A DNA stretch of 64,000 nucleotides from an uncultured Gammaproteobacteria bacterium (GTDB lineage Bacteria; Patescibacteriota; Patescibacteriia; UBA1558; UBA10009), in the NCBI GenBank assembly GCA_964588165.1, contig CAZPMS010000002.1, positions 15,951 through 79,950 of the forward strand. Direction: 5' to 3'. Of the stretch, positions 813-55,937 are shown piece by piece. Positions within the stretch are counted from its first letter, which is position 1; the number at the start of each line of letters is the position of its first letter. The notes under the pieces were generated by a model. That model ran no database searches and was not told the origin of the DNA. It was given only the letters and a program-made list of their open reading frames with translations. Position numbers and translations under genes: made by a program.

Positions 813-1529
813 TTACCAACCTTTGTTTTCTATGGCTTTTTGAGCAGCATCTACCTGCGCTTCTTGCTTAGAAGTGCCTTCGCCTTCGGCAATTAGTTCA
901 TTCTCTAAATAAACACCAACCTTAAAGAATTTATTGTGGTCTGGTCCGTTTTCTTCCAAAACTTTATAAACCGGAGTAGTGCTAAAGAATTCCTGGGATT
1001 TTTCCTGAAATTTACTTTTAGGGTCTTGGTAGAGATGATTTTCTAAGATATGAGGCAGTTTTATTAAAATATTATCACTAATAAATTTATCAGCTGCTTT
1101 CATTCCTTGATCTAAATAAATAGCTCCAATAATAGCTTCCATGGCATTAGCCAAAATATAATTACGGGCCTTAGGATTGGCATCCTGTTTTTCGCCTTTG
1201 CTCATATACAAAAATTCTTCAATTTCCAGTGCGCTGGCAATTTCGGCCAACATCTTGGCGTTAACCAAGCTGGCACGCCAATTGGTTAGCTCGCCTTCTG
1301 GGTTAGGATAGTTTTTATAAAGGTATTCCGTGGTGACCATCTCTAAAACAGCATCGCCCAAAAATTCCAACCTTTCATTGTGGTCTAGGGGAAAATTTTT
1401 ATGTTCATTAATGTATGAACGATGGACGATAGATGATTTTAGGAAATCTTGATTTTTAAAAGATAAGCCAAGATTTTTTTCTAACTTTTTTAGTTCTTTC
1501 ATAAATTGTAGTTGTATAGCGTATAACAT
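813..1529 (-). CDS. rnc: Ribonuclease III
   Basis: The ERLEFLGDAVL RNase III signature is present, and a C-terminal dsRBD-like region (KFFKVGVYLENELIAEGEGTSKQEAQ). Confidence 0.9.
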   Translation of the reverse strand: MLYAIQLQFMKELKKLEKNLGLSFKNQDFLKSSIVHRSYINEHKNFPLDHNERLEFLGDAVLEMVTTEYLYKNYPNPEGELTNWRASLVNAKMLAEIASALEIEEFLYMSKGEKQDANPKARNYILANAMEAIIGAIYLDQGMKAADKFISDNILIKLPHILENHLYQDPKSKFQEKSQEFFSTTPVYKVLEENGPDHNKFFKVGVYLENELIAEGEGTSKQEAQVDAAQKAIENKGW

Positions 1530-1571
1530 GTAACGTGTATAGGATACACGATGCAGGCTATACGTTAAACG
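1521..1571. repeat. Repeat family D (TACACG / ACGT-rich, about 50 bp) in the spacer between the nusB-NUDIX stop and the rnc start.
   Basis: 'gctatacgttaaacgtta' and 'cgtgtataggatacacg' resemble 37841-37908, which sits upstream of the Nif3-like gene. The 'acgtcac' units are also found inside tsaD (15255-15285). Confidence 0.5.
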
Positions 1572-2435
1572 TTATTTAATATTTAATTTTTTAAAAGCTG
1601 CATTTAAAATCCCTAAAGCATTTTCGTAGCCGACTATTTTTTTAGCCTCATCTTTATTTACCCATTTAGCGTCTTTTACTTCTGGCTCATTGGTGATTTT
1701 TAATTTGTCATCAGTAGTTTCTATTAAAAAGTAGTAGACAGTTTTAGGAACAGGCCTTTTATTTGGCTCTTTTACTTTTATTTCAATACTATCTAAATAA
1801 CCTAAACTTTTTACATTGTTTACTCCGATTTCTTCTTTAATTTCCCTTAGGGCGGCATTTTCTTTGTCCTCATTTTCTTTTATGTGGCCTTTGGGGAAAG
1901 TCCATTTGTTATAGGCATCTAAAATTAAAGCGAATTTATAATTATTATCCTCTTTTTTAAAAACTACGCCACCGGCAGAAAATTCTTTTGGCGGTTCGGT
2001 TTCAAATTCTTTTTTTTCGCCGGTTTTTTGCATGTCTTTAAAAACACTGCCTAAAACTCCGTTAACAAATTTACCAGAAGATTCACCGCCATAAGTTTTT
2101 GCCAACTCAATAGCTTCATTAATAGCAACTTTTGGAGGAATTTCTTTAGAAAATTTTAATTCAAAAATTCCAATACGCAAAACATTTCTATCTACTGTGG
2201 TAATTTGTTCAATTGGCCACTCCGGAGCATATTTTTTTATCATTTTATCAATTTCGGGAACTTTTTCAGCGATACTTTTAATTAGATTTTTAGAAAAATC
2301 TTGATCATCAAAACCCTGTGCAAATTCATCTCGATTATTCTCTAAAAGTTTTTGTAGGTTTTCTTTTTTTTCATTAAAGTCCCATTGGAAAAGACTTTGT
2401 AAAACTAAAGTTCTGGCTAAATGTCTGTTGGACAT
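1572..2435 (-). CDS. nusB: NusB (transcription antitermination factor) N-terminal domain fused to a C-terminal NUDIX hydrolase domain.
   Basis: N-terminus: LARTLVLQSLFQWDF...DRNVLRIGIFEL...KVAINEAIELAKTYGGESSGKFVNGVLGSV, which is NusB-like. C-terminus: GGVVFKK...GHIKENEDKENAALREIKEEIGV, a Nudix box of the form Gx5Ex7REUxEExGU. Confidence 0.8.
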   Translation of the reverse strand: MSNRHLARTLVLQSLFQWDFNEKKENLQKLLENNRDEFAQGFDDQDFSKNLIKSIAEKVPEIDKMIKKYAPEWPIEQITTVDRNVLRIGIFELKFSKEIPPKVAINEAIELAKTYGGESSGKFVNGVLGSVFKDMQKTGEKKEFETEPPKEFSAGGVVFKKEDNNYKFALILDAYNKWTFPKGHIKENEDKENAALREIKEEIGVNNVKSLGYLDSIEIKVKEPNKRPVPKTVYYFLIETTDDKLKITNEPEVKDAKWVNKDEAKKIVGYENALGILNAAFKKLNIK

Positions 2436-6427: not shown

Positions 6428-7435
6428 ATGGAAGTAATTGCTACATTATGGAAAGTGCCTTATCATCACGATCGCAATCGGCGAATGATTGAAGCTGGCG
6501 TAGATTGTTTTAGGATTAAGTGTTCTCATTGGGAAGTTAAAGGCATTTCTGGTGCACTGCAGGCTGCACGAAAGCAAATTGATGAATCAGGCAAACCAAT
6601 AAAACTGATAGCTGATCTGCCTGAAGCAAAATTACGGTTAGGTTTTTTCCCACAAGAACGTCTTATTTTGCCAAAGGGCAAGGGGTATTTATTTAAATTT
6701 GCCGAATCTTCTGATAATCCAGAAAGTTTTATTCCGGTAAAATTTAAAGGTATAACTAAACATCTTAAAGTAGGTGACGAATTTTATATAGGTGATGGCT
6801 GGCTGGCCTTTACTGTAACTGAAATTATTAATGAAGATAGCTTTAAAGCCATAACCAGTAACACCGGCCAATTAGTTTTTAGAACATCTTTAACCATTCC
6901 AAAATTAATGGATGAGTTAAATCATATTACTCCGGTTATAGACGAACTAATTGTTGAATTGCCAAAGTGTCGGCCGGAAATTGTGGCTTTTTCTTTTGTA
7001 AATTCAAAAGCGATGTTGCAGGAATTAAAGAATAAGCTTTTAAAAGTTGCAACTAAAAGCTGGCAGCCAAAAGTTATAGCAAAAATTGAGTCCAAGGAAG
7101 GCGTAAAAAATATTGATGAAATTCTTGAACTGGCTGACGGTATCATGGTAGCCAGGGGTGATTTAGCTTTAAATATACCTTACGCTGAGCTGGGCTTAAT
7201 TCAAAAAAAATTAGTTAAAAAGGCTAAAGAAAAAGATAAATATGTTATTGTGGCAACTCAAATTCTTCAATCACTTTTGGATAATTATTTACCAATGAGA
7301 TCAGATATTCTTGACCTAACTAATATCTGTCTTGATGGGGCATCAGCTATTATGCTATGTACAGAAACTGCCCATAGTGAAAATCCTGAGCGAGCGGTAA
7401 GAGTGGCCAAAGAAATTATTAAAGCTGTTAACTAG
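6428..7435 (+). CDS. pyk: Pyruvate kinase-like protein (barrel/catalytic domain only, 335 aa).
   Basis: IAKIESKEGVKNIDEILELADGIMVARGDLALNIPYAELGLIQKK...VIVATQILQSLL...DILDLTNICLDGASAIMLCTETA matches the PK active-site region. No C-terminal allosteric domain is present. Confidence 0.65.
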   Translation: MEVIATLWKVPYHHDRNRRMIEAGVDCFRIKCSHWEVKGISGALQAARKQIDESGKPIKLIADLPEAKLRLGFFPQERLILPKGKGYLFKFAESSDNPESFIPVKFKGITKHLKVGDEFYIGDGWLAFTVTEIINEDSFKAITSNTGQLVFRTSLTIPKLMDELNHITPVIDELIVELPKCRPEIVAFSFVNSKAMLQELKNKLLKVATKSWQPKVIAKIESKEGVKNIDEILELADGIMVARGDLALNIPYAELGLIQKKLVKKAKEKDKYVIVATQILQSLLDNYLPMRSDILDLTNICLDGASAIMLCTETAHSENPERAVRVAKEIIKAVN

Positions 7436-14868: not shown

Positions 14869-15975
14869 TTGAATATGAAAATATTAGGTATAGAAACATC
14901 ATGTGATGAAAGCGCAGCTGCGCTGCTTCACGTATCACATAACACATATCACTTATCCAGTAATATTGTTTTATCGCAGATAGATATTCATAAAAAATAT
15001 GGTGGCATTGTGCCAGAGGTGGCAGCACGGAAACATGTTGAGTCAATTATTCCTGTTATTGAAGAATCCATTGGTAAGCAAAAACCGGATTTAATTGCTG
15101 TAACCTATGGTCCTGGTTTAATTACTTCGTTACAGGTTGGTGTGCAAACAGCTAAGACCTTGGCTTACATTTGGCAGGTTCCTTTAGTTGGGGTAAATCA
15201 TTTGGAGGCTCATCTTTGGAGCTTTATTTTGAATGAAGAAAGACGAGTGAAGAATGACGTCACACGTCACACGTCACACGTCAAACAATTTCCGGCAGTT
15301 GGTCTAATCGTATCAGGCGGGCATACGGAAATGGTTTTAGTAAAGGGAATTGGCTCGCCTCGATTCCCGTCCCGACTCGGTCGATCCGAGGCAAACGACG
15401 AAGCGGGCAAGTATAAATTGATTGGCAGAACCAGAGACGATGCAGTAGGCGAAGCTTTTGATAAAGTGTCTAAGATGTTAGAAACTGGTTACCCGGGCGG
15501 ACCGATTATTAGCCACTTTGCCAAAAAAGGCGATCCAGCAAGTATAGATTTTCCTAGACCGATGATAGATAGTGACGATTTTGATTTTTCTTTTTCCGGT
15601 TTAAAAACAGCAGTTAAGTATCATCTTAAACAAATGCCTAAAACCGGCAATTTAAGCCAGGCTTTTATAAATAATGTTTGTGCCAGTTTCCAAAAAGCGG
15701 TAATTGATGTTTTAGTTAGTAAAACCATTAAAGCTACAGAAAAATATAAGGCCAAATCAATTATTTTGGGCGGGGGAGTTAGTGCCAATGAAAATTTAAT
15801 CCATAATCTATTATCCATAACCAAAAAAAGGGAGATAGACTTTTATTATCCAGAATTAAAATTTACCGGTGATAATGCGGCTATGGTGGCTTTGGTAGGC
15901 TTCTTAAATAAAAAATCTGCCAAGAAAAATAATTGGCAGAAGTTGGTGGCCGAAGCAAATCTTAAGTTGGTTTAG
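14869..15975 (+). CDS. tsaD: tRNA N6-adenosine threonylcarbamoyltransferase TsaD (Kae1/YgjD family) carrying two in-frame repeat-encoded insertions.
   Basis: MKILGIETSCDESAAAL...VNHLEAH...SGGHTEMV...DDAVGEAFDKV...GYPGGP. Extra segments ERRVKNDVTRHTSHVKQ and SPRFPSRLGRSEANDEAG are encoded by repeats at 15255-15285 and 15352-15412. Confidence 0.9.
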   Translation: MNMKILGIETSCDESAAALLHVSHNTYHLSSNIVLSQIDIHKKYGGIVPEVAARKHVESIIPVIEESIGKQKPDLIAVTYGPGLITSLQVGVQTAKTLAYIWQVPLVGVNHLEAHLWSFILNEERRVKNDVTRHTSHVKQFPAVGLIVSGGHTEMVLVKGIGSPRFPSRLGRSEANDEAGKYKLIGRTRDDAVGEAFDKVSKMLETGYPGGPIISHFAKKGDPASIDFPRPMIDSDDFDFSFSGLKTAVKYHLKQMPKTGNLSQAFINNVCASFQKAVIDVLVSKTIKATEKYKAKSIILGGGVSANENLIHNLLSITKKREIDFYYPELKFTGDNAAMVALVGFLNKKSAKKNNWQKLVAEANLKLV

Positions 15976-23101: not shown

Positions 23102-23199
23102 TATCACGGATAATGCTGATTGTATACGCAGATGAACACTGACAATCCGCGGATATCAGCAAAGATCGGTGTCATTAATCAGCGTTATCAGCGTAAAGT

Positions 23200-29576: not shown

Positions 29577-29678
29577 GGGGGTAGCTAGTTAATTTTAAAT
29601 TTCGAATTTTAAATTTCGAAAGAATTTCAAATTATTTTAAAATTTGTAATTTATAATTAAAAATTCATCTATATTATA

Positions 29679-31496: not shown

Positions 31497-31716
31497 TTTT
31501 AGGTAGTTAGTTAATTTTTTTTACTACTAATTACGAATAAATACGAATATACTAATCTACAAATATAAATTATTCAGATTAACAAAGTTTAATTATTTGT
31601 ATATTAGTACAAATTCGTAATTCGTAGAATTTAAAGTAGTGTTGATTATAAAAGATTAAGCTAATTTTGACAAGTATCAAAAAAGACCTACATTCAGCAG
31701 GCCTTTTTATATAAAA

Positions 31717-32922: not shown

Positions 32923-32940
32923 AAAATATAATTTTATATT

Positions 32941-32998
32941 AGCTCCTCGGCTCGTAAATATAAAAGTAAATTTTCATATTTACTCGCTTTACGTCGCA
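32941..32998. repeat. Repeat family E copy, about 55 bp: 'cctcggctcg.aaata.aaagtaaa...ctcgct.tacgtc', just upstream of the S1 gene start.
   Basis: A second copy lies at 44576-44631, immediately upstream of the queA start codon. Confidence 0.6.
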
Positions 32999-33254
32999 AA
33001 TAAAAAAAATCTTCTAGCCTTCTCGAGCCGTGCTCGACATGAAAGCCCTCCCGGACCCTCTAAATTACGGGAGGTTAGCTTATGAGGGTCGCTTGGGATT
33101 ATAGTTTATTGCTTTATTTTTGTCAATATTACTAATTTCACTAAGGCTCATAGATGTTACACTAATAACGCACTAATATTTGTGCGTTATCTGCGGGTAA
33201 TTAGTGAGCATTAGCGCATTTGTGAACTATCAGTGATTATCATATAATTAAAAT

Positions 33255-35135: not shown

Positions 35136-37727
35136 ATGCCGAAAAAGAAAGAGAATAAAAAAACGAATAAAAAGTCAGTCAAGAAGCCAGTTAAAAAAAC
35201 TCAGCCCAAAGCTGAAAAATCTAAAGCTGAAATTAAGAAGACAGATACTAAAAAAGAGCCTAAACAGCTTTCTGTTTTAGAAAACAATCAGGGCAAAATT
35301 GAAATCCAACCAATCGTAGACGAGATGAAGGTTTCTTATCTTGATTATGCAATGTCTGTAATAGTTTCTAGGGCCCTGCCGGATGTTAGAGACGGCCTAA
35401 AACCTGTTCACAGAAGAATTTTATATGCCATGTGGAGCTTGGGTTTAAAAGCCGGAGCAAAATTCCGCAAGTCAGCTACAGTTGTTGGTGAAGTTTTGGG
35501 CAAATACCACCCCCATGGAGATACGGCGGTTTATGATTCTATGGTTAGAATGGCCCAGGATTTTGCTATGCGCTATCCTTTGGTTAACGGCCAGGGAAAT
35601 TTTGGATCCATGGATGGTGATGGCGCTGCAGCTATGCGTTATACCGAGGCTAAACTAACCCATCTTTCTGAAGAATTAATATACGATTTAGAAAAAGATA
35701 CGGTAGATTTTGTTCCTAATTATGATGGTTCCCAATCTGAACCAACAGTATTACCTGCTAAGCTGCCAAATCTTTTATTAAACGGCTCTGTGGGCATTGC
35801 TGTTGGCATGGCAACCAATATTCCGCCCCATAATTTAACTGAATTAATAAACGGCATCAGCCATTTAATAGATAAGCCAAATGCTTCTACAGAGGATTTA
35901 ATGCAGTTTATTACCGGTCCCGATTTCCCAACAGGAGCTACTATCTATAATATAGAAGATATTAAAACAGCTTACGCTACAGGCAAGGGATCGATTGTTA
36001 TGCGGGCCAACGCGGAAATCACCGAAGGCAAAGGCAGCAGCTTTAGGGTTATAGTTTCGGAAATTCCTTATCAAGTTAATAAGGCCAATTTATTGGAAAA
36101 AATAGCTGATCTGGTTAAAACTAAAAAAATTGACGGCATTAGGGATTTAAGGGATGAATCAGATAAAGATGGCGTAAGGATTGTTATTGATCTTAAAAAA
36201 GAAGCTTATCCTAAAAAAGTTTTAAATGCTTTGTACAAGCATACCCAACTTCAGGATACTTTCCATGTAAATTTATTGGCCTTAGTAGATGGAATTCAGC
36301 CAAAAGTTTTAAGCTTAAAGACCGTTTTGGAAGAATATATAAAACATAGAAAAGATGTGGTTACCCGTCGGACCCAATTCGAGTTGAATAAAGCCAAAGA
36401 TAGGGCCCATATTTTGGAAGGCTTGGTAATGGCCTTGGAAGATATTGATAAAATCATCACTACCATTAAAAAGTCTAAAGATAAAGAAGACGCTAAAGCT
36501 AATTTAATCAAAAAGTTTAAACTGTCAGAGCGTCAGGCCGTAGCTATTCTAGAAATGAAGCTGCAGCAGCTGGCTAATCTGGAAAGGTTAAGGGTAGAAG
36601 AGGAATTAAAGGAAAAGAAAAAACTTATAAAAGAACTTACTGCTATATTAAAAGACCCTAAAAAGGTTTTAGGAATTATTAAAGATGAGCTGGCTGAAAT
36701 TAAAGAAAAATACGGCGACGGCCGAAGAACCAAGGTAGTTAAAGGAGCCATCGGCCAGTTTACCACCGAAGATTTAATTCCTAACGAACCGGCAGTGGTT
36801 ATGGTTACCAATGATGGCTATATTAAACGTTTACCACCAGATACCTTTAAGGTCCAATCCAGAGGCGGCAAAGGCGTTATTGGCGCTACTACCAAAGAAG
36901 AAGATATTATAGAACATTTATTTACTACCAATACCCATGCCGATTTAATGTTTTTTACTTCCAGGGGCCGCTTGTTCCAATTAAAGGCTTATGAAATTCC
37001 GCAAACCACCAGAACCGCCAAAGGCCAGGCCATTGTAAACTTTTTGCAACTGGCGCCAGAAGAAAAAGTTTCGGCTGTTTTATCTACAGAAGATATATCC
37101 GCCTTTAAACATTTGGTGATGGTTACTAAAAAAGGCTTAATTAAAAAAGTTGATATAGAAAAATTTAAAAATGTAAGGCGTTCCGGTTTAATCGCCATTA
37201 AATTAAAAGAAGACGATTTATTAGAATGGGTTAAACCTTCAAGCGGTAAGGATAATATAATTTTAGTTACGGCCCAGGGGCAAGCTATAAGATTTAAAGA
37301 AAAAGACGTTAGAGAAATGGGCAGGGGCGCTGCCGGTGTAAGGGGCATTAAAATTAAAAAATCGGGTGACGAAGTAGTAGGTATGGATATTTTATATGAT
37401 GGCAAGGCCGGTCCGGATGAACAGCTACTTGTGGTAATGAGGAACGGTTTTGGCAAACGAACAGCCCTTAAGGAATATAAAGTCCAGGGCAGGGGCGGTA
37501 CAGGCGTTAAAACGGCTTCCGTTACAGAAAAAACCGGCCGGATAGAATCTGCCTTTATTGTTAACGCCAAGCTCACCAACGAAGATATTATTGTAATTTC
37601 TGATAAGGGCCAGGTTATTAGATTGCCTTTAAAGTCAGTTTCAAAAATTGGCCGGGCTACCCAAGGTGTTAGGTTAATGAAGTTTAAGGAAAAAGGCGAT
37701 AAGGTTGCTTCGGTAACGTTTGTTTAA
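35136..37727 (+). CDS. gyrA: DNA gyrase subunit A with an N-terminal Lys-rich extension of about 45 aa.
   Basis: [33 protein letters not shown]. Active-site Tyr region. C-terminal beta-pinwheel repeats. The N-terminus is [21 protein letters not shown]. Confidence 0.9.
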
Positions 37728-37749
37728 ATTTATATTTTGATTTATCGGT

Positions 37750-37782
37750 AGCCCGCCGAATCGGCGGGCTACTTTTGTCTAC
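37750..37782 (+). terminator. Intrinsic terminator after gyrA
   Basis: gtagcccgccgaatcggcgggctac followed by ttttgtc. Confidence 0.7.
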
Positions 37783-37840
37783 ATTAGTCTTGTCAATAAA
37801 TAAAGAATATGGTAGTTTTTTAAAACGATTACAATTAATC

Positions 37841-37908
37841 GTGTATCGTATATCGCGTGTCTTATATCAGGTTACACGCTATACGTCACACGTTACACGA
37901 CCAAAAAT
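37841..37908. repeat. Repeat family D copy. It includes the perfect palindrome acgattacaattaatcgt and 'gctatacgtcacacgttacacg', directly upstream of the Nif3-like gene.
   Basis: See 1521-1571. Confidence 0.5.
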
Positions 37909-38919
37909 ATGTTAACTTTAAAACAAATTTACAAATTAGCCATAGAATTAGGCATAAAAAATGACCTTAGGGGCCAAAAAATGGTTAAAGATAAATTAAC
38001 CAGAGTTAAAGTAAAATATAATAAACTTTCTGATGAACAAAAGAAGAATTTTGATGAAGAAAAATTGTTCAACCCTTTTTCTGATACCAGAATTTTTGGT
38101 GATGAGGGCAGGAAAGTTAAGAGAGTTTTAGCCGGAATAGATATGGAAACAGGTGAAGTAATGCTAGCCAATAAACTTAGTGAATCTAAACCAATTGATT
38201 TAATAATAGGCCACCACCCAATTGGCAAAGCTTTAGCCGGTTTGGATGAAGTAATGGCCTTGCAGGCCGAAGTTTTAGCCGGTTATGGCGTGCCTATAAA
38301 CATCGGAGAAAGTTTAACAGAAAAGAGAATGAGTGAAGTTTCCCGTGGAGTTTCTTCGGCTAACCATTATCAAGCAATTGATGCAGCCAAGCTTTTAGAT
38401 ATAGATATGATGTGCGTACATACTCCGGCCGATAATATGGTGGCTAATTTTTTAGCTAAAGAAATTAAAAAGAATAGATCAAAACTGGTTTATGTAGAAG
38501 ATATTTTAAATTTATTAAAGAAGATTCCGGAATATAAGGAAGGTTTAAAAAACGGCGCCGGCCCCAGATTGTTTACCGGCAAGCCTAATAGGTATTGTGG
38601 CAAAATAGCCGTAACTGAAATTACCGGCGGAACAAGCGGGCATAAAGATATTTATAAACATATGGCAGATGCCGGCATCGGTACTATTGTAGCTATGCAT
38701 ATGAGAGAAGAACATAGGGAAGAGGCGGAAAAAGCCCACTTAAATATTGTTATTGCCGGCCATATGGCTTCTGATTCCTTAGGCATGAATTTATTTTTGG
38801 ATGAACTAACCAAGAAGGGAATTGAGGTAGTAACATGTTCCGGATTAATCAGGTATTCTCGAGTTAAAAAATCAGTTTCCAAAAAGAAAAAAGTTTCTAA
38901 GAAAAGAAAAAAGAAATAG
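37909..38919 (+). CDS. Nif3 family (YqfO/YbgI-like) dinuclear metal-centre protein with a K-rich tail.
   Basis: LIIGHHPIG...VHTPADN...IAGHMASDSLG. C-terminus KKSVSKKKKVSKKRKKK. Confidence 0.75.
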   Translation: MLTLKQIYKLAIELGIKNDLRGQKMVKDKLTRVKVKYNKLSDEQKKNFDEEKLFNPFSDTRIFGDEGRKVKRVLAGIDMETGEVMLANKLSESKPIDLIIGHHPIGKALAGLDEVMALQAEVLAGYGVPINIGESLTEKRMSEVSRGVSSANHYQAIDAAKLLDIDMMCVHTPADNMVANFLAKEIKKNRSKLVYVEDILNLLKKIPEYKEGLKNGAGPRLFTGKPNRYCGKIAVTEITGGTSGHKDIYKHMADAGIGTIVAMHMREEHREEAEKAHLNIVIAGHMASDSLGMNLFLDELTKKGIEVVTCSGLIRYSRVKKSVSKKKKVSKKRKKK

Positions 38920-44462: not shown

Positions 44463-44575
44463 ATCGCACTCCTAGTGTTAATGATCTTTTAGCTAATATT
44501 ACTTATTTTGAAAAATCTGTCAATTGCTAATAAATTTTAAAAAATGCTATAATTGGATTTATATAATAATATAAA

Positions 44576-44631
44576 TTCCTCGGCTCGAAATAATAAAGTA
44601 AACTTATATTATTTCTCGCTCTACGTCATTT
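44576..44631. repeat. Repeat family E copy, immediately upstream of queA
   Basis: aattcctcggctcgaaataataaagtaaacttatattatttctcgctctacgtc, compared with 32941-32998. Confidence 0.6.
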
Positions 44632-45669
44632 ATGAAGCTTTCAGATTTTGATTACAAATTACCCAAACAGCTTATTGCTCATAAACCGGCCAGCCCGCGT
44701 GATAATTCCAGGCTGATGGTTTTAGATCGCCAATCAAAAAAGATTGAACATAAGCATTTTTTTGATATTGTAGATTATTTAAATAAAGGCGATGTTTTGG
44801 TTTTGAATAATACTAAGGTATTTCCGGCTCGTCTTATCGGCCAGCGTTATAAAACCGGCGGTAAAGTGGAAGTTTTCCTTTTGAAAAAAGTTGGATCGAG
44901 CTCAGCTCGATGGGAAGTGTTAATTGGGAACAGAAGAAAAAAAATTGGTCAAATAATTGAATTTGGCAAAGGTTTGGAATGTGAAATTGTAAAGCAAATT
45001 GATGAATCAGTCTGGCAGGTTAAGTTTAATAAATCGGGCAGTCAACTAGAAAAAGTTATTGATCAAATCGGTGAAGTTCCTACTCCACCTTATATTAAAA
45101 TTAAAGATAAAAAGACTAAAAGATTGAAAGATTTATATCAAACAGTTTATGCAGAGCATCGTGGGTCAGTAGCGGCGCCTACGGCTGGGTTTCATTTTAC
45201 AAAACCTTTAATCAACAAATTAAAAAAGAAGGGCGTTCAATTTGAATATGTTACGCTCCATGTTGGTTTTGGAACTTTTGAAGAAGTTAGAGTGAATAAT
45301 ATTAAAAAGCACAAAATGCATTCAGAATTCGCAAAAATAGACGCAAAGACCACAAAAAATTTAAATAATGCAAAAAAAGAAAGTAGGCGGGTAATATCAG
45401 TCGGCACAACCTCAACCAGAGTTCTTGAAGCTTTTAGTAGTAAAGGAAAAATTAAAGCTCAAAGCAAGTGGGTAGATATTTTTATTTACCCAGGCTATAA
45501 GTTTAAATTTATTGATGGGTTGATAACAAATTTTCATTTGCCCAAATCAAGTTTAATAATGTTAGTAAGTGCTTTAGCTGGTCGTCAACTTATTCTCAAG
45601 GCTTACAAGACTGCTGTCAGTAAAAAGTACCGTTTTTATTCTTTTGGCGACAGTATGTTTATTTTTTAA
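44632..45669 (+). CDS. queA: S-adenosylmethionine:tRNA ribosyltransferase-isomerase QueA. It carries an in-frame family F palindrome at 44895-44913.
   Basis: MKLSDFDYKLPKQLIAHKP...RLMVL. VLNNTKVFPARL. C-terminal TNFHLPKSSL. Confidence 0.85.
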   Translation: MKLSDFDYKLPKQLIAHKPASPRDNSRLMVLDRQSKKIEHKHFFDIVDYLNKGDVLVLNNTKVFPARLIGQRYKTGGKVEVFLLKKVGSSSARWEVLIGNRRKKIGQIIEFGKGLECEIVKQIDESVWQVKFNKSGSQLEKVIDQIGEVPTPPYIKIKDKKTKRLKDLYQTVYAEHRGSVAAPTAGFHFTKPLINKLKKKGVQFEYVTLHVGFGTFEEVRVNNIKKHKMHSEFAKIDAKTTKNLNNAKKESRRVISVGTTSTRVLEAFSSKGKIKAQSKWVDIFIYPGYKFKFIDGLITNFHLPKSSLIMLVSALAGRQLILKAYKTAVSKKYRFYSFGDSMFIF

Positions 45670-45764
45670 GATAACAAAAACCCCGCAATAATGCGAAGGC
45701 TTTTGTTTTTATTTTTATTTCAATTCCGTTGACGTTTTTTAAATGTACATATTAATCGAAAAGT

Positions 45765-45795
45765 GGACCCCGCTGCTCGCGAGCGGCAGGGGTGG
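45765..45795. repeat. Palindrome family A copy 1 (ccccgctgctcgcgagcggcagggg), intergenic.
   Basis: The core gctcgcgagc is perfectly palindromic. Other copies are at 46275-46304 and 47723-47747. Confidence 0.7.
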
Positions 45796-46100: not shown

Positions 46101-46274
46101 TTTTGTTTTGGAAATTAGACATTAAAAAATGCCTTGAACAAAAACCAAGACATCGCACGAATCAATATTAAATTGGTTTTTGTTTTATTTTGGCCCACCT
46201 TTGCTAAAGCTTCGGCGGATAAATAAGCTATTTTGGCTTACATAAGTAATGATAGCATAAATTTTTAAAAAAGT

Positions 46275-46304
46275 CAACCCAGCTGCTCGCGAGCGGCTGG
46301 GTTG
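46275..46304. repeat. Palindrome family A copy 2 (caacccagctgctcgcgagcggctgggttg).
   Basis: Near-perfect 30-bp palindrome in intergenic DNA. Confidence 0.7.
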
Positions 46305-47114: not shown

Positions 47115-48215
47115 TTATTTGTTAAATAAAAAGTAAACAGTATCACCGTCTTTTATTGGGTAGTTTTTACCTTCAGTTTTAATTAGGCCCTGTTCTTTAG
47201 CTTGAATTTCTCCGCCAGCTTCAATTAAACTTTGCCAATTTACAATTTCGGCTCTAATAAAGCCCTGTTCAAAATCGGTATGGATAACTCCGGCTGCCTG
47301 CGGTGCCTGCGTGCCACTTTCAACAGTCCAGGCATGGGCTTCTTTTGGGCCGGCAGTGAAGAAGGTTATGAGATTTAAAAGATTGTAAGATTGTAAGATT
47401 AATTTATCTAAACCACTTTGGCTTATGCCGAGTGTTTCTAAATATTGTTTAGCCTCAACGGCTGGCATAGAGGCCAGTTCAGATTCTAACTTGGCAGATA
47501 TGGTTAAGTAAGGTTTTTTATAATGATCCTTGGATTTAGTTAGTTCATTTTCAGAAACATTATAAACATAAAGGATTGGTTTATAAGTTAGAAGATTTAA
47601 TTCTTTAATAAATTTAATATCTTCATCAGCTACTTCTAAATTAATAGCAAATTTTTCTTCTTCCAGAATCTTTTTTAAGTTTTTTAAAATTTCAATGTTT
47701 TTTAAAAGAATTTTGTCTTTTGACCCAGCTGCTCGCGAGCGGCTGGGAGAACCTTTAGCTTGCTTGGTTAGTTTTTCTAAAAGACCATTAACCGTTTCTA
47801 AGTCGGCCAGGATTAATTCTAAATTAATAGTTTTTACATCATCTTCCGGATCAATTTTGCCGTTTACATGAATTATATCGTCATTAGCAAAATCTCTAAC
47901 CACCTCAGCAATCGCATCAACCTCTCTTATATGAGAAAGGAATTTATTGCCTAAGCCTTCACCATCGGCTGCGCCCTTTACTAGGCCTGCAATATCTACA
48001 AATTCAATAGCGGTTGGTACTACTTTGGGAGAATTATAAAGCTGGGCAAGCTTGTCTAACCTATTATCAGGAACGGCCACCACACCTACATTAGGCTCAA
48101 TAGTGCAAAATGGATAATTAGAAGCATCCACCTGATTTTTAGTTAGGGCAGTAAATAAAGTTGATTTGCCTACATTAGGCAAGCCCACAATGCCGATTGA
48201 AAAACTCATAAACAA
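47115..48215 (-). CDS. ychF: Ribosome-binding ATPase YchF (Obg-like). It carries an in-frame family A palindrome insertion (SPSRSRAAGS).
   Basis: GIVGLPNVGKSTLF. TGS domain. C-terminal ...LNLITFFTAGPKEAHAWT. Confidence 0.85.
   Translation of the reverse strand: MFMSFSIGIVGLPNVGKSTLFTALTKNQVDASNYPFCTIEPNVGVVAVPDNRLDKLAQLYNSPKVVPTAIEFVDIAGLVKGAADGEGLGNKFLSHIREVDAIAEVVRDFANDDIIHVNGKIDPEDDVKTINLELILADLETVNGLLEKLTKQAKGSPSRSRAAGSKDKILLKNIEILKNLKKILEEEKFAINLEVADEDIKFIKELNLLTYKPILYVYNVSENELTKSKDHYKKPYLTISAKLESELASMPAVEAKQYLETLGISQSGLDKLILQSYNLLNLITFFTAGPKEAHAWTVESGTQAPQAAGVIHTDFEQGFIRAEIVNWQSLIEAGGEIQAKEQGLIKTEGKNYPIKDGDTVYFLFNK
47723..47747. repeat. Palindrome family A copy 3, inside the ychF coding sequence and in frame.
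   Basis: acccagctgctcgcgagcggctggg. Confidence 0.7.
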
Positions 48216-52358: not shown

Positions 52359-52438
52359 TACGCCCGCCCGCCATGGCTCCGCCGAAGGCGAGTCGGGCGG
52401 GGAGCAGATAATTTATGAAGTTTCAATCAGGGATTAAT

Positions 52439-55043: not shown

Positions 55044-55125
55044 ATCGCAGATATGCCCGCAGATAACCCACAGATATCTCGCAGATAGATTATTATTAAC
55101 TTTTATTCATTAATCATTAATATAA

Positions 55126-55902: not shown

Positions 55903-55937
55903 GCTCTAGTAATCGGTAACTAGTAACTAGGGATTAT

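Follow-up and report, generated by a model that had tools for sequence, protein, structure and literature searches.

The 64,000-nucleotide (nt) window analyzed here (assembly GCA_964588165.1, contig CAZPMS010000002.1, positions 15,951 to 79,950 of the forward strand), from an uncultured bacterium placed by GTDB in the Patescibacteriota, carries two look-alike blocks of TACACG-type 7-nt repeats, one (site 1) in the spacer between a nusB-NUDIX fusion gene and rnc, the gene for ribonuclease III (RNase III), and the other (site 2) in the leader of a NIF3-like gene. Here, we report that these blocks, judged from their sequence, probably act as RNA hairpins on which RNase III works, rather than as binding sites for a transcription factor. 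We read them as a pair of copies from one lineage-specific family, which belongs to a class of “repeat-armed hairpins” that spans the Patescibacteria, transcribed double-stranded RNA (dsRNA) modules that RNase III would bind or cut and that would be autoregulatory at rnc, a reading to which we give an even chance of being right. Of most interest are the class as a whole and its association with rnc; the TACACG family is a minor local instance.

The link to rnc was measured in a sample of 80 loci around rnc homologues from Patescibacteria genomes (1.15 Mb; individual relatives are cited below by their L numbers), in which the 130 nt upstream of each rnc were also inspected. Upstream spacers of at least 50 nt were taken, and the 90 nt next to the start were scored for fold stability (z against shuffles) and for lag-7/8 periodicity. 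Spacers that were both hairpin forming and periodic were distributed as follows.

Upstream of rnc: 20 of 45 spacers (44%).
Upstream of nusB: 7 of 57 spacers (12%).
Upstream of all other genes: 34 of 553 spacers (6.1%).

Compared with other genes, rnc is strongly enriched (Fisher odds ratio, 12.2; p = 2e-11). The predicted stems of the 20 rnc cases have 18 to 32 pairs (median, 24.5), and their 3′ ends lie 1 to 14 nt from the ATG (median, 8 nt; interquartile range [IQR], 8 to 10 nt), an anchoring at about 8 nt that holds even in spacers of 336 and 455 nt. Many of the relatives’ rnc leaders have two arms of 7-nt (sometimes 8-nt) tandem units, inverted with respect to each other and mutually unrelated in sequence from type to type, as in the following.

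ATTGTTAC/TTAACAAT: rnc leader unit in L016, L035, L020, L032, and L050.
GCTTTGG/CCCAAAGC: rnc leader unit in L009 and L028.
AATTCGT/ACAAATT: rnc leader unit in L006 and L017.
GGAGTTT/AACCTCC: rnc leader unit in L070.
CTAATTT/ATTAGAA: rnc leader unit in L076 and L077.

The CGTGTA/TACACG unit of the window recurs at rnc only in L001 (RNase III, 78% identical), whose rnc leader block is the only other one of TACACG type in 1.2 Mb of relatives’ loci; of the remaining near relatives, L003 has a nonperiodic hairpin (z, −6), and L002 and L004 have none. The window genome stands close to Komeilibacteria, and its RNase III is at most 80% identical to that of any of 185,579 species representatives. Because the position and architecture of the rnc hairpin are kept and both arms change together, the pattern points to conserved base pairing and not to a conserved protein-recognition sequence.

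Beyond rnc, the class was surveyed in the same loci with a detector of tandem-array pairs whose consensus units are reverse complements. It found 56 such pairs of heptamer arrays in the 1.15 Mb, where block-shuffled sequence gave 3. A scan of periods from 4 to 14 gave most inverted pairs at period 7 (46), followed by period 14 (15), with 8 for period 8 and 0 to 11 for each of the others (shuffles, 0 to 3), and period-7 arrays overall were about three times as frequent as in shuffles. The class was seen in metagenome-assembled genomes (MAGs) from many separate studies. Forty-two hairpins lie in codirectional spacers and 6 in divergent ones; none was found in 79 convergent spacers of at least 60 nt, where about 4 to 5 would be expected by chance, so the class does not consist of terminators. 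An intrinsic-terminator reading of the window blocks was rejected on the same count and on a terminator scan, which called neither of them. Genes other than rnc that have such hairpins upstream are mostly housekeeping genes (infC, rplT, rplL, rplI, rpsD, the S1 gene, groES, parB, dnaE, pilT, thrS, and glmS), with a median of 10 nt from the stem end to the start codon. In roomy spacers, 12 hairpins lay nearer the start and 8 nearer the stop, a difference that is not significant and depends on crude open reading frame (ORF) calls (ATG only, at least 90 amino acids [aa]); both gene boundaries were overpopulated, with 7 hairpins within 15 nt of a start against 1.3 expected.

Unit words are shared between array pairs more often within genomes than between them (11.5% versus 4.2%; 2.9-fold; p = 2e-10), which suggests additional copying between loci; the sharing is modest, and the copy number per unit word is low. 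Several unit words coexist in the window genome (TACACG, TACGAAT, ATTAATG/AATCATC, and CTAAATC, among others), their arrays standing as inverted pairs. Two of the window’s hairpins with words other than TACACG lie on either side of ftsH.

29591 to 29665, minus strand: hairpin of AATTTTAAATTTCG and TTTAAAA units in the spacer between ftsH and the next gene (Tandem Repeats Finder [TRF], detector, and fold).
31524 to 31627, minus strand: hairpin of TACGAAT/ATTCGTA units, 39 pairs, in the spacer between the S1 gene and ftsH (inverted repeat, TRF, and fold).

The former fills its spacer, 13 to 14 nt from both neighboring genes, and the latter ends 27 nt before the ftsH ATG (31496). TACGAAT/ATTCGTA unit words also stand at other genes in L033, L040, L073, L006, and L017. 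Near-identical words (TTACTAAT..TACGAATATACTAAT / ..ATTCGTATATTCGTAA..AATTCGTAATTCGTA) occur in L033 (6845 to 6944), L040 (14882 to 14957), the window (31524 to 31627), and L073 (1898 to 1997), and these hairpins of distant genomes precede different genes (rplL, ftsH, and smc); the L033 and L040 arms retain a single U.C mismatch in every unit.

Hairpins of this build are also found within rRNA. Detector matches in an ORF-free region of L006 and L017, two Falkowbacteria-like MAGs, fall within the 23S rRNA gene (L006, 6447 to 10448; L017, 3853 to 7964), which measures 4.0 to 4.1 kb against a 2.9-kb model and is about 1.1 kb longer than it. Alignment to the model places three insertions of 160 to 175 nt in the L006 gene, each at a hairpin tip.

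Model positions 283 to 289: insertion at a helix tip.
Model positions 583/584: insertion in the stem-loop preceding the conserved CCUUUUGUAUAAUGG.
Model positions 2168 to 2175: insertion in the L1-stalk region.

The stem-loop before CCUUUUGUAUAAUGG we take to be helix 25, the classical site of intervening sequences (IVS). At least three of the L006 insertions are repeat-armed hairpins; the 23S insertions are predicted to fold into 24 to 47 pairs, with 1×1 or 2×2 loops roughly once per unit, and hairpins of the same word are found in several different 23S helices of one genome. Since rRNA tolerates only a self-contained RNA hairpin, the dyad symmetry there is an RNA-level property. The 23S gene of L017 also holds a LAGLIDADG homing-endonuclease ORF (6624 to 7142), so that insertions of the intron and hairpin types occur side by side. 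In the candidate phyla radiation (CPR), 77% of 23S genes have been reported to contain insertions of 100 nt or more (PMC9297842). An RNA family scan found no rRNA gene in the window itself.

In the window (GC content, 36.7%), site 1 and its surroundings comprise the following features.

813 to 1529, minus strand: RNase III, catalytic and dsRNA-binding domains (mechanical ORF; domain assignment).
1514 to 1570, minus strand: site 1 hairpin (sequence, folds, lag-7 autocorrelation, and minimum free energy [MFE] z score).
1557 to 1574, plus strand: 18-mer GCTATACGTTAAACGTTA, with 16 of 18 positions common to site 2, the outer 5′ arm of site 1 on the antisense strand.
1572 to 2435, minus strand: NusB-NUDIX fusion (domain assignment).

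By homology, rnc starts at the ATG at 1502 to 1500, kept as ATGAAAGA in relatives; the mechanical start at 1529 is wrong and makes the ORF 9 codons too long. The spacer between nusB-NUDIX and rnc consequently runs from 1503 to 1571 and measures 69 nt, all of it occupied by the block, where a preliminary description of this DNA had given 42 bp. In gene sense, the 5′ arm (1544 to 1570) and the 3′ arm (1514 to 1540) enclose a core stem of CGUGUAU (1550 to 1544) and AUACACG (1540 to 1534) with its loop at 1543 to 1541, and the units in rnc sense are TAACGTT TAACGTA TAGCCTG CATCGTG TAT-cct-ATACACG TTACATG TTATACG CTATACA. The predicted stem has 21 pairs and ends 11 nt from the rnc ATG; the 18-mer overlaps the nusB-NUDIX stop codon. 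Because the hairpin begins 1 nt after that stop (1572 to 1574), site 1 leaves no room for a promoter. The sole sigma-70-like match within it, GTTACA-18-TACAAT (9/12), ends 2 nt before the ATG and was rejected, such matches being no commoner than in shuffles, and inspection of the 3′ arms of the relatives’ rnc hairpins found no consistent −10 hexamer. Neither block matched an Rfam family at the gathering score or at an E value of ≤1, the curated rncO family included.

Five further assemblies of this strain carry the site 1 block unchanged, which excludes an assembly artifact, and they show no unit-number polymorphism there; TsaD and NIF3 are each the sole member of their 90% protein clusters. 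Fusion of NusB to NUDIX is common to the closest relatives, and a NUDIX-like C-terminal coding sequence adjoins rnc in L002 and L004. RNase J is encoded 7 kb past the window end in the same genome.

Two further repeats flank this pair of genes. They are 71-nt copies, 90% identical, of a GC-rich hairpin (GCCGCGCCCCGCTTG.GAAGCGAAGCGGAGTCGGGCCGGGG) at 591 to 661, past the rnc 3′ end, and at 2438 to 2508, upstream of the nusB-NUDIX start, with direct ATTAATG/ATGATTA heptamer-like repeats on both sides; the pair is probably the “other mobile repeat” alluded to in the preliminary description.

Site 2 lies between gyrA and the NIF3-like gene.

35136 to 37727, plus strand: GyrA (domain assignment).
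37790 to 37818, plus strand: predicted promoter of the NIF3-like gene, conserved with the relative L081.
37825 to 37842, plus strand: small hairpin, ACGATTA-CAAT-TAATCGT, with a 7-bp stem and a 4-nt loop, at the putative 5′ end of the leader.
37838 to 37902, plus strand: site 2 repeat-armed hairpin (detector match, TRF, folds, lag-7 autocorrelation, and MFE z score).
37909 to 38919, plus strand: NIF3-like gene (domain assignment).

The predicted promoter consists of a −35 box, TTGTCA (37790 to 37795), a 17-nt spacer, and an extended −10 box, TGgTAGTTT (37810 to 37818), and the leaders of L081 and the window align over an invariant run, TCTTGTCAA...AATATGGTAGTTTTTTA...ACAATTAATC. From these boxes, transcription would start near 37825, and the block would be transcribed as part of the 5′ untranslated region (UTR). 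About 61 nt of the window leader (roughly 37841 to 37901) are absent from L081 (NIF3, 79% identical in aa), in which the ATG stands 14 nt past the conserved promoter run, compared with about 75 nt in the window. On this alignment, the block is an insert of about 61 nt particular to the window lineage; it lies past the conserved predicted promoter, which would place it in the 5′ UTR. On one side the insert is bordered by the conserved CAATTAATC and on the other by an A-rich stretch that leads to the ATG; its flanks show no visible duplication, the relative being distant and the borders not placeable to the base. The true gyrA terminator is separate (37747 to 37773).

The site 2 units are CGTGTAT CGTATAT CGCGTGT CTTATAT cagg TTACACG CTATACG TCACACG TTACACG, with predicted paired bases from 37840 to 37892 (about 20 pairs), a right array that extends to 37899, and the ATG at 37909. 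TRF called arrays of period 14 and period 7, the latter at 37871 to 37899. The 3′ half of the small hairpin overlaps the first unit of the main block; the small hairpin itself, “acgattacaattaatcgt,” had been called a perfect palindrome and is instead a 7-bp inverted repeat with a 4-nt center. Upstream of the NIF3-like gene of another relative (L082, about 120 to 181), a TTGTCA promoter-like box is followed by heptamer-like units in direct orientation (GTTAAAT TGCTAAA GTTAAAC ATTAACT) that have no inverted counterpart.

Both intergenic blocks share one construction, an inverted pair of degenerate heptamer arrays with CGTGTAT-like units on the left and reverse-complement ATACACG/TTACACG-like units on the right, predicted to form an imperfect hairpin of about 20 bp that ends 11 to 16 nt before the start codon. 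Their ACGT cores arise at unit junctions (..CACG/TTAC..); ACGT is not underrepresented in the window (64 observed versus 63.6 expected), and restriction-site avoidance was not found. Autocorrelation at lag 7 is 0.56 at site 1 and 0.53 to 0.60 at site 2, with other lags at about 0.2 (p < 0.0005 versus shuffles), and the MFE z scores against shuffles of the exact blocks are −4.8 and −3.65, respectively. Aligned locally in gene sense, the two blocks score 33 over 51 columns at about 73% identity (shuffled controls, 15.0 ± 2.3; maximum, 24 in 500 shuffles); since shuffling breaks the shared repeat units, the alignment speaks for common units and arrangement and not necessarily for common descent. 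The detector with +1/−2 scoring had no match in the window, and a relaxed version found site 2 and missed site 1, whose units are too degenerate to be called as arrays; that site is confirmed by its autocorrelation.

ACG/CGT trinucleotides average 0.51 per 50 nt across the window and reach at least 6 per 50 nt solely at 15230 to 15279 (9; tsaD), 1529 to 1578 (7; site 1), and 37851 to 37900 (7; site 2), 14 to 18 times the mean. The 18-mer GCTATACGTYAMACGTTA has two exact matches in the window (1557 to 1574 and 37878 to 37895) against 0.10 expected, a count that is weak by itself because the pattern was defined post hoc from its two copies, and the hexamer TACACG by itself is not enriched (10 matches versus 7.7 expected). 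The signal is the clustered, periodic, dyad arrangement and not a lone TACACG. The TACACG/ACGTCAC repeat family of the preliminary description is confirmed. Its look-alike blocks before rnc and the NIF3-like gene are present, and its identification of RNase III, NusB-NUDIX, GyrA, the NIF3-like protein, and TsaD was borne out. The 16 kb past the window ends hold no further TACACG block; heptamer blocks with other words occur there.

The third ACG/CGT cluster lies in coding DNA.

14869 to 15975, plus strand: TsaD (alignment with TsaD of relatives).
14928 to 14957, plus strand: degenerate period-7 stretch in tsaD, TCACATA-like, 4.3 copies, 82% matches (TRF).
15257 to 15283, plus strand: perfect tandem array in tsaD, 3.9 copies of ACGTCAC, in frame (TRF, period 7).

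The ACGTCAC array, noticed earlier as a tandem repeat, encodes ..DVTRHTSHV.. in a hypervariable surface loop that is 5 to 8 aa longer in the window than in L001 and L004 and that holds an unrelated 42-aa insert in L003. It has the 11-mer ACGTCACACGT in common with the right arm of site 2, which is unlikely by chance (rough estimate, 1e-3 to 1e-4). Having no inverted partner, it is an array and not a hairpin. In our reading, it is an expansion of this heptamer family within a coding sequence, and its survival there would rest on a frame preserved by three units and on a tolerant loop. The stretch at 14928 to 14957 encodes ..HVSHNTYHL.. at the same length as in relatives, and its kinship to the heptamer family is uncertain.

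Two other observations concern tsaD. A GC-rich in-frame insertion of 18 codons (15352 to 15410; SPRFPSRLGRSEANDEAG) is absent from all five aligned TsaD relatives and resembles the GC-rich intergenic islands of the window in composition (cccgactcgg versus gagtcgggc). The gene also seems leaderless, with TTGACT, a 17- to 18-nt spacer, TGCTATTAT, 7 nt, and the ATG (14875; window, 14869 to 14877); several other promoters in the window have the common form TTGAC(A/T)-N17-TGCTAT(C/T)AT.

In the reading that we favor, each block would be transcribed within an mRNA, site 1 in the nusB-NUDIX/rnc intercistronic spacer and site 2 in the 5′ UTR of the NIF3-like gene, as an imperfect stem of about 20 to 25 bp whose 3′ end lies about 8 to 16 nt upstream of the start codon and which RNase III would bind or use as a dsRNA substrate. 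Classical substrates of this enzyme have stems of about two helical turns. At rnc, the outcome would be negative autoregulation, in which RNase III cuts or occupies the stem beside its own ribosome-binding region; this would part rnc from nusB and expose a 5′-monophosphate end to RNase J and/or would hinder initiation. The near-constant 8-nt gap to the ATG may mean that binding or cleavage directly affects the initiation region or the newly made 5′ end. The NIF3 copy would be a recent insertion of the same module that puts the gene under the same control or is merely tolerated. As to origin, slippage of 7-nt units in both half-stems, together with copying between loci, would best explain the heptamer construction of the arms, a half-stem unit duplicated on both arms lengthening the stem by 7 bp in two steps, and the in-frame array in the tolerant tsaD loop would be a coding-region by-product of the same process. 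Bacteria are known to have an excess of heptamer repeats, for which polymerase slippage is the proposed explanation (PMC4692102).

Several findings weigh against this reading. The window stems are short (20 to 21 pairs) and broken by internal loops, and RNase III does not account for the 7-nt periodicity or for the regular per-unit mismatches. The tight spacing of about 8 nt to the ATG hints at a link to translation initiation that simple cleavage does not need, and some members in roomy spacers adjoin the upstream stop codon instead of the start. Strong rnc hairpins show no consistent stability advantage of the sense over the antisense strand, and there is no G.U signature of sense-RNA selection; rRNA-embedded members are also poor in G.U pairs, which makes this test uninformative rather than negative. 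Finally, the element is dispensable, since the NIF3 copy is absent in L081 and the rnc hairpin is absent in the Komeilibacteria-like L002 and L004.

These absences suit the main rival, which we judge unlikely while treating it as a serious contender, namely, that the hairpins are selfish or neutral insertions, produced by heptamer slippage and fold-back or ectopic copying, with no function at rnc or at the NIF3-like gene. They would be kept wherever they are harmless, as hairpins in leaders, between cistrons, and at the tips of rRNA helices and as plain arrays in tolerant loops of proteins. Turnover is well explained in this way, as are the commonness of unit words within genomes, the same-word copies in several 23S helices, the in-frame arrays in the hypervariable TsaD loop, and the lack of a sense/antisense stability bias, and a heptamer slippage bias is on record (PMC4692102). 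The preference for rnc and the anchoring are not explained. A neutral process does not predict a 12-fold enrichment before the gene of a dsRNA nuclease, an 8-nt (IQR, 8 to 10 nt) anchoring at the rnc ATG in spacers of up to 455 nt, the persistence of a hairpin at rnc across deeply diverged lineages despite sequence turnover, or absence from the 79 convergent spacers. The idea of “another mobile repeat” raised in the preliminary description is partly borne out by the NIF3 insertion, the word sharing within genomes, and the 23S copies; against it, no target duplication, fixed ends, or high copy number was seen.

A start-proximal hairpin that works independently of RNase III, either as a 5′ stabilizer against 5′-to-3′ decay by RNase J or as a structural boundary or standby element for initiation without a Shine-Dalgarno sequence, strikes us as improbable. 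As such an element would, the stem stops at a nearly fixed 8 to 10 nt short of the rnc ATG and, at other genes, a median of 10 nt short of the start codon; RNase J is encoded in the window genome, and Beggiatoaceae have TAACTGA heptamers within a few nt of starts, for which a role in translation was proposed (PMC4679880). Shine-Dalgarno-like motifs are rare in these leaders generally (10 to 16%), and their depletion before hairpin-bearing genes is not significant (10% versus 16%). A stabilizer or standby element leaves unexplained both the preference for rnc and the presence of the same hairpins in 23S rRNA, and several members adjoin the upstream stop or sit tens of nt from the start.

The preliminary description had named as one possibility a transcription-factor motif with a palindromic ACGT core, and an operator of ACGT-core half-sites, bound by a factor that coregulates rnc, the NIF3-like gene, and possibly tsaD, would account for the dyad symmetry, for repeated half-sites that resemble operator arrays, and for two gene starts with an 18-mer identical at 16 of 18 positions. 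We consider it very improbable. The motif search upstream of genes that had been suggested yields only two intergenic sites in about 80 kb (the 64-kb window and 16 kb of flanks), and the block lies downstream of the conserved predicted NIF3 promoter, which L081 keeps in its orthologous leader without the block. At rnc, moreover, position and architecture are kept and sequence is not, several unrelated unit words coexist in one genome, and rRNA genes contain hairpins of this build. An origin by chance in low-complexity sequence or by faulty assembly, for which the lack of TACACG enrichment and the post hoc 18-mer test might speak, is scarcely credible given the ACG/CGT density of 14 to 18 times the mean at three spots only, the lag-7 signal (p < 0.0005), an alignment score beyond 500 of 500 shuffles, the identity of the sequence in five independent assemblies, and the occurrence of the class in MAGs of many studies.

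Among known systems, one close in setting is rncO, a hairpin of the Escherichia coli RNase III operon whose cleavage within the 5′ UTR by RNase III makes the operon autoregulatory (Bardwell et al. 1989, summarized in PMC8708148). Common to both are a stem-loop immediately upstream of rnc and a proposed, here conjectural, negative feedback via the enzyme’s own leader substrate. There is no homology in sequence or structure, however; the arms here are heptamer repeats, the hairpin is mostly intercistronic (nusB/rnc) with a stem about 8 nt from the ATG, and rncO stands at the operon 5′ end.

Classical 23S IVS are extra stems of 100 to 200 nt that RNase III excises from the tips of helices 25 and 45 (PMC8708148, PMC2801512). 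The repeat-armed hairpins of L006 and L017 resemble them in standing at 23S helix tips, and both are long, self-contained stems of sporadic occurrence, whereas the window blocks lie in predicted mRNA leaders and not in rRNA. To our knowledge, heptamer-periodic arms have not been described for classical IVS. The rRNA insertions of CPR bacteria have been discussed mostly as introns (PMC9297842).

Heptameric intergenic repeats are known as TAACTGA in Beggiatoaceae and Cyanobacteria (PMC4679880) and as GGGAATC in Xanthomonas and GGGGAYT in Nostoc (PMC4692102). The TAACTGA arrays lie a few nt from starts, in leaders without a Shine-Dalgarno sequence, also in ribosomal-protein operons, and occasionally in ORFs (PMC4679880). 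Like the hairpins here, these repeats are 7-nt tandem intergenic units, and some Xanthomonas arrays are inverted pairs. Unlike them, the repeats have one dominant direct unit at up to hundreds of loci, whereas here many AT-rich units form hairpins as inverted pairs and rnc is preferred. The STRR of cyanobacteria are heptamers as well.

The Correia elements of Neisseria (CREE/NEMIS) are small nonautonomous inverted-repeat elements that are cotranscribed with adjoining genes and bound or cleaved by RNase III (PMC2649163). Short hairpin insertions by gene starts, presence/absence polymorphism, presumed cotranscription, and a proposed interaction with RNase III that would change the expression of the adjoining gene are points of likeness. 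CREE have fixed terminal inverted repeats, a TA target duplication, and hundreds of near-identical copies, in contrast to two copies about 73% alike in about 80 kb and no fixed terminal sequence seen here. A literature search, which was incomplete, found no account of such hairpins in Patescibacteria/CPR, and a prior description is still possible.

The window holds other repeats apart from these blocks. GC-rich palindromic islands (ACCC.GCTGCTCGCGAGCGGC.GGG and similar) stand out from the AT-rich background at 45759 to 45794, 46269 to 46304, 47715 to 47750, and 52359 to 52410. Look-alike stretches at about 32940 to 33000 and about 44565 to 44631 (..CCTCGGCTCG.AAATA..AAAGTAAA..TATT.CTCGCT.TACGTC..), the second directly upstream of a gene that starts at 44632, may be a shared leader or small RNA motif; neither had an Rfam match at the gathering score. 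Direct tandem arrays lie immediately upstream of starts at 55044 to 55125 and 55903 to 55937 (CGCAGATAnCC × 3.7, period 11, and then TTAATCA units; CTAGTAA/TCGGTAA heptamers), and related CGCAGAT/CGCGGAT words occur at 23102 to 23199.

A wider version of the favored reading, which we offer as speculation and think on the whole unlikely, is that the hairpins are phylum-wide nonautonomous dsRNA modules, spread by heptamer-based copying, that colonize mRNA leaders and rRNA helix tips and that with RNase III form a global posttranscriptional circuit, in which the level of RNase III would be set by, and would set, the fate of hairpin-bearing transcripts and the fragmentation of 23S rRNA. On the practical side, repeat-armed hairpins inflate annotated rRNA gene lengths and lengthen mechanical ORF calls. 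The Patescibacteria (the CPR) make up a large uncultured share of bacterial diversity in which the control of gene expression is almost uncharted. If the reading is true, a recognizable RNA element stands at the rnc leader in nearly half of the usable cases, and also before genes of translation and RNA metabolism and in 23S rRNA; it would be a first handle on posttranscriptional control and rRNA processing in Patescibacteria and would give a functional context to the unexplained overrepresentation of heptamers in bacterial intergenic DNA.

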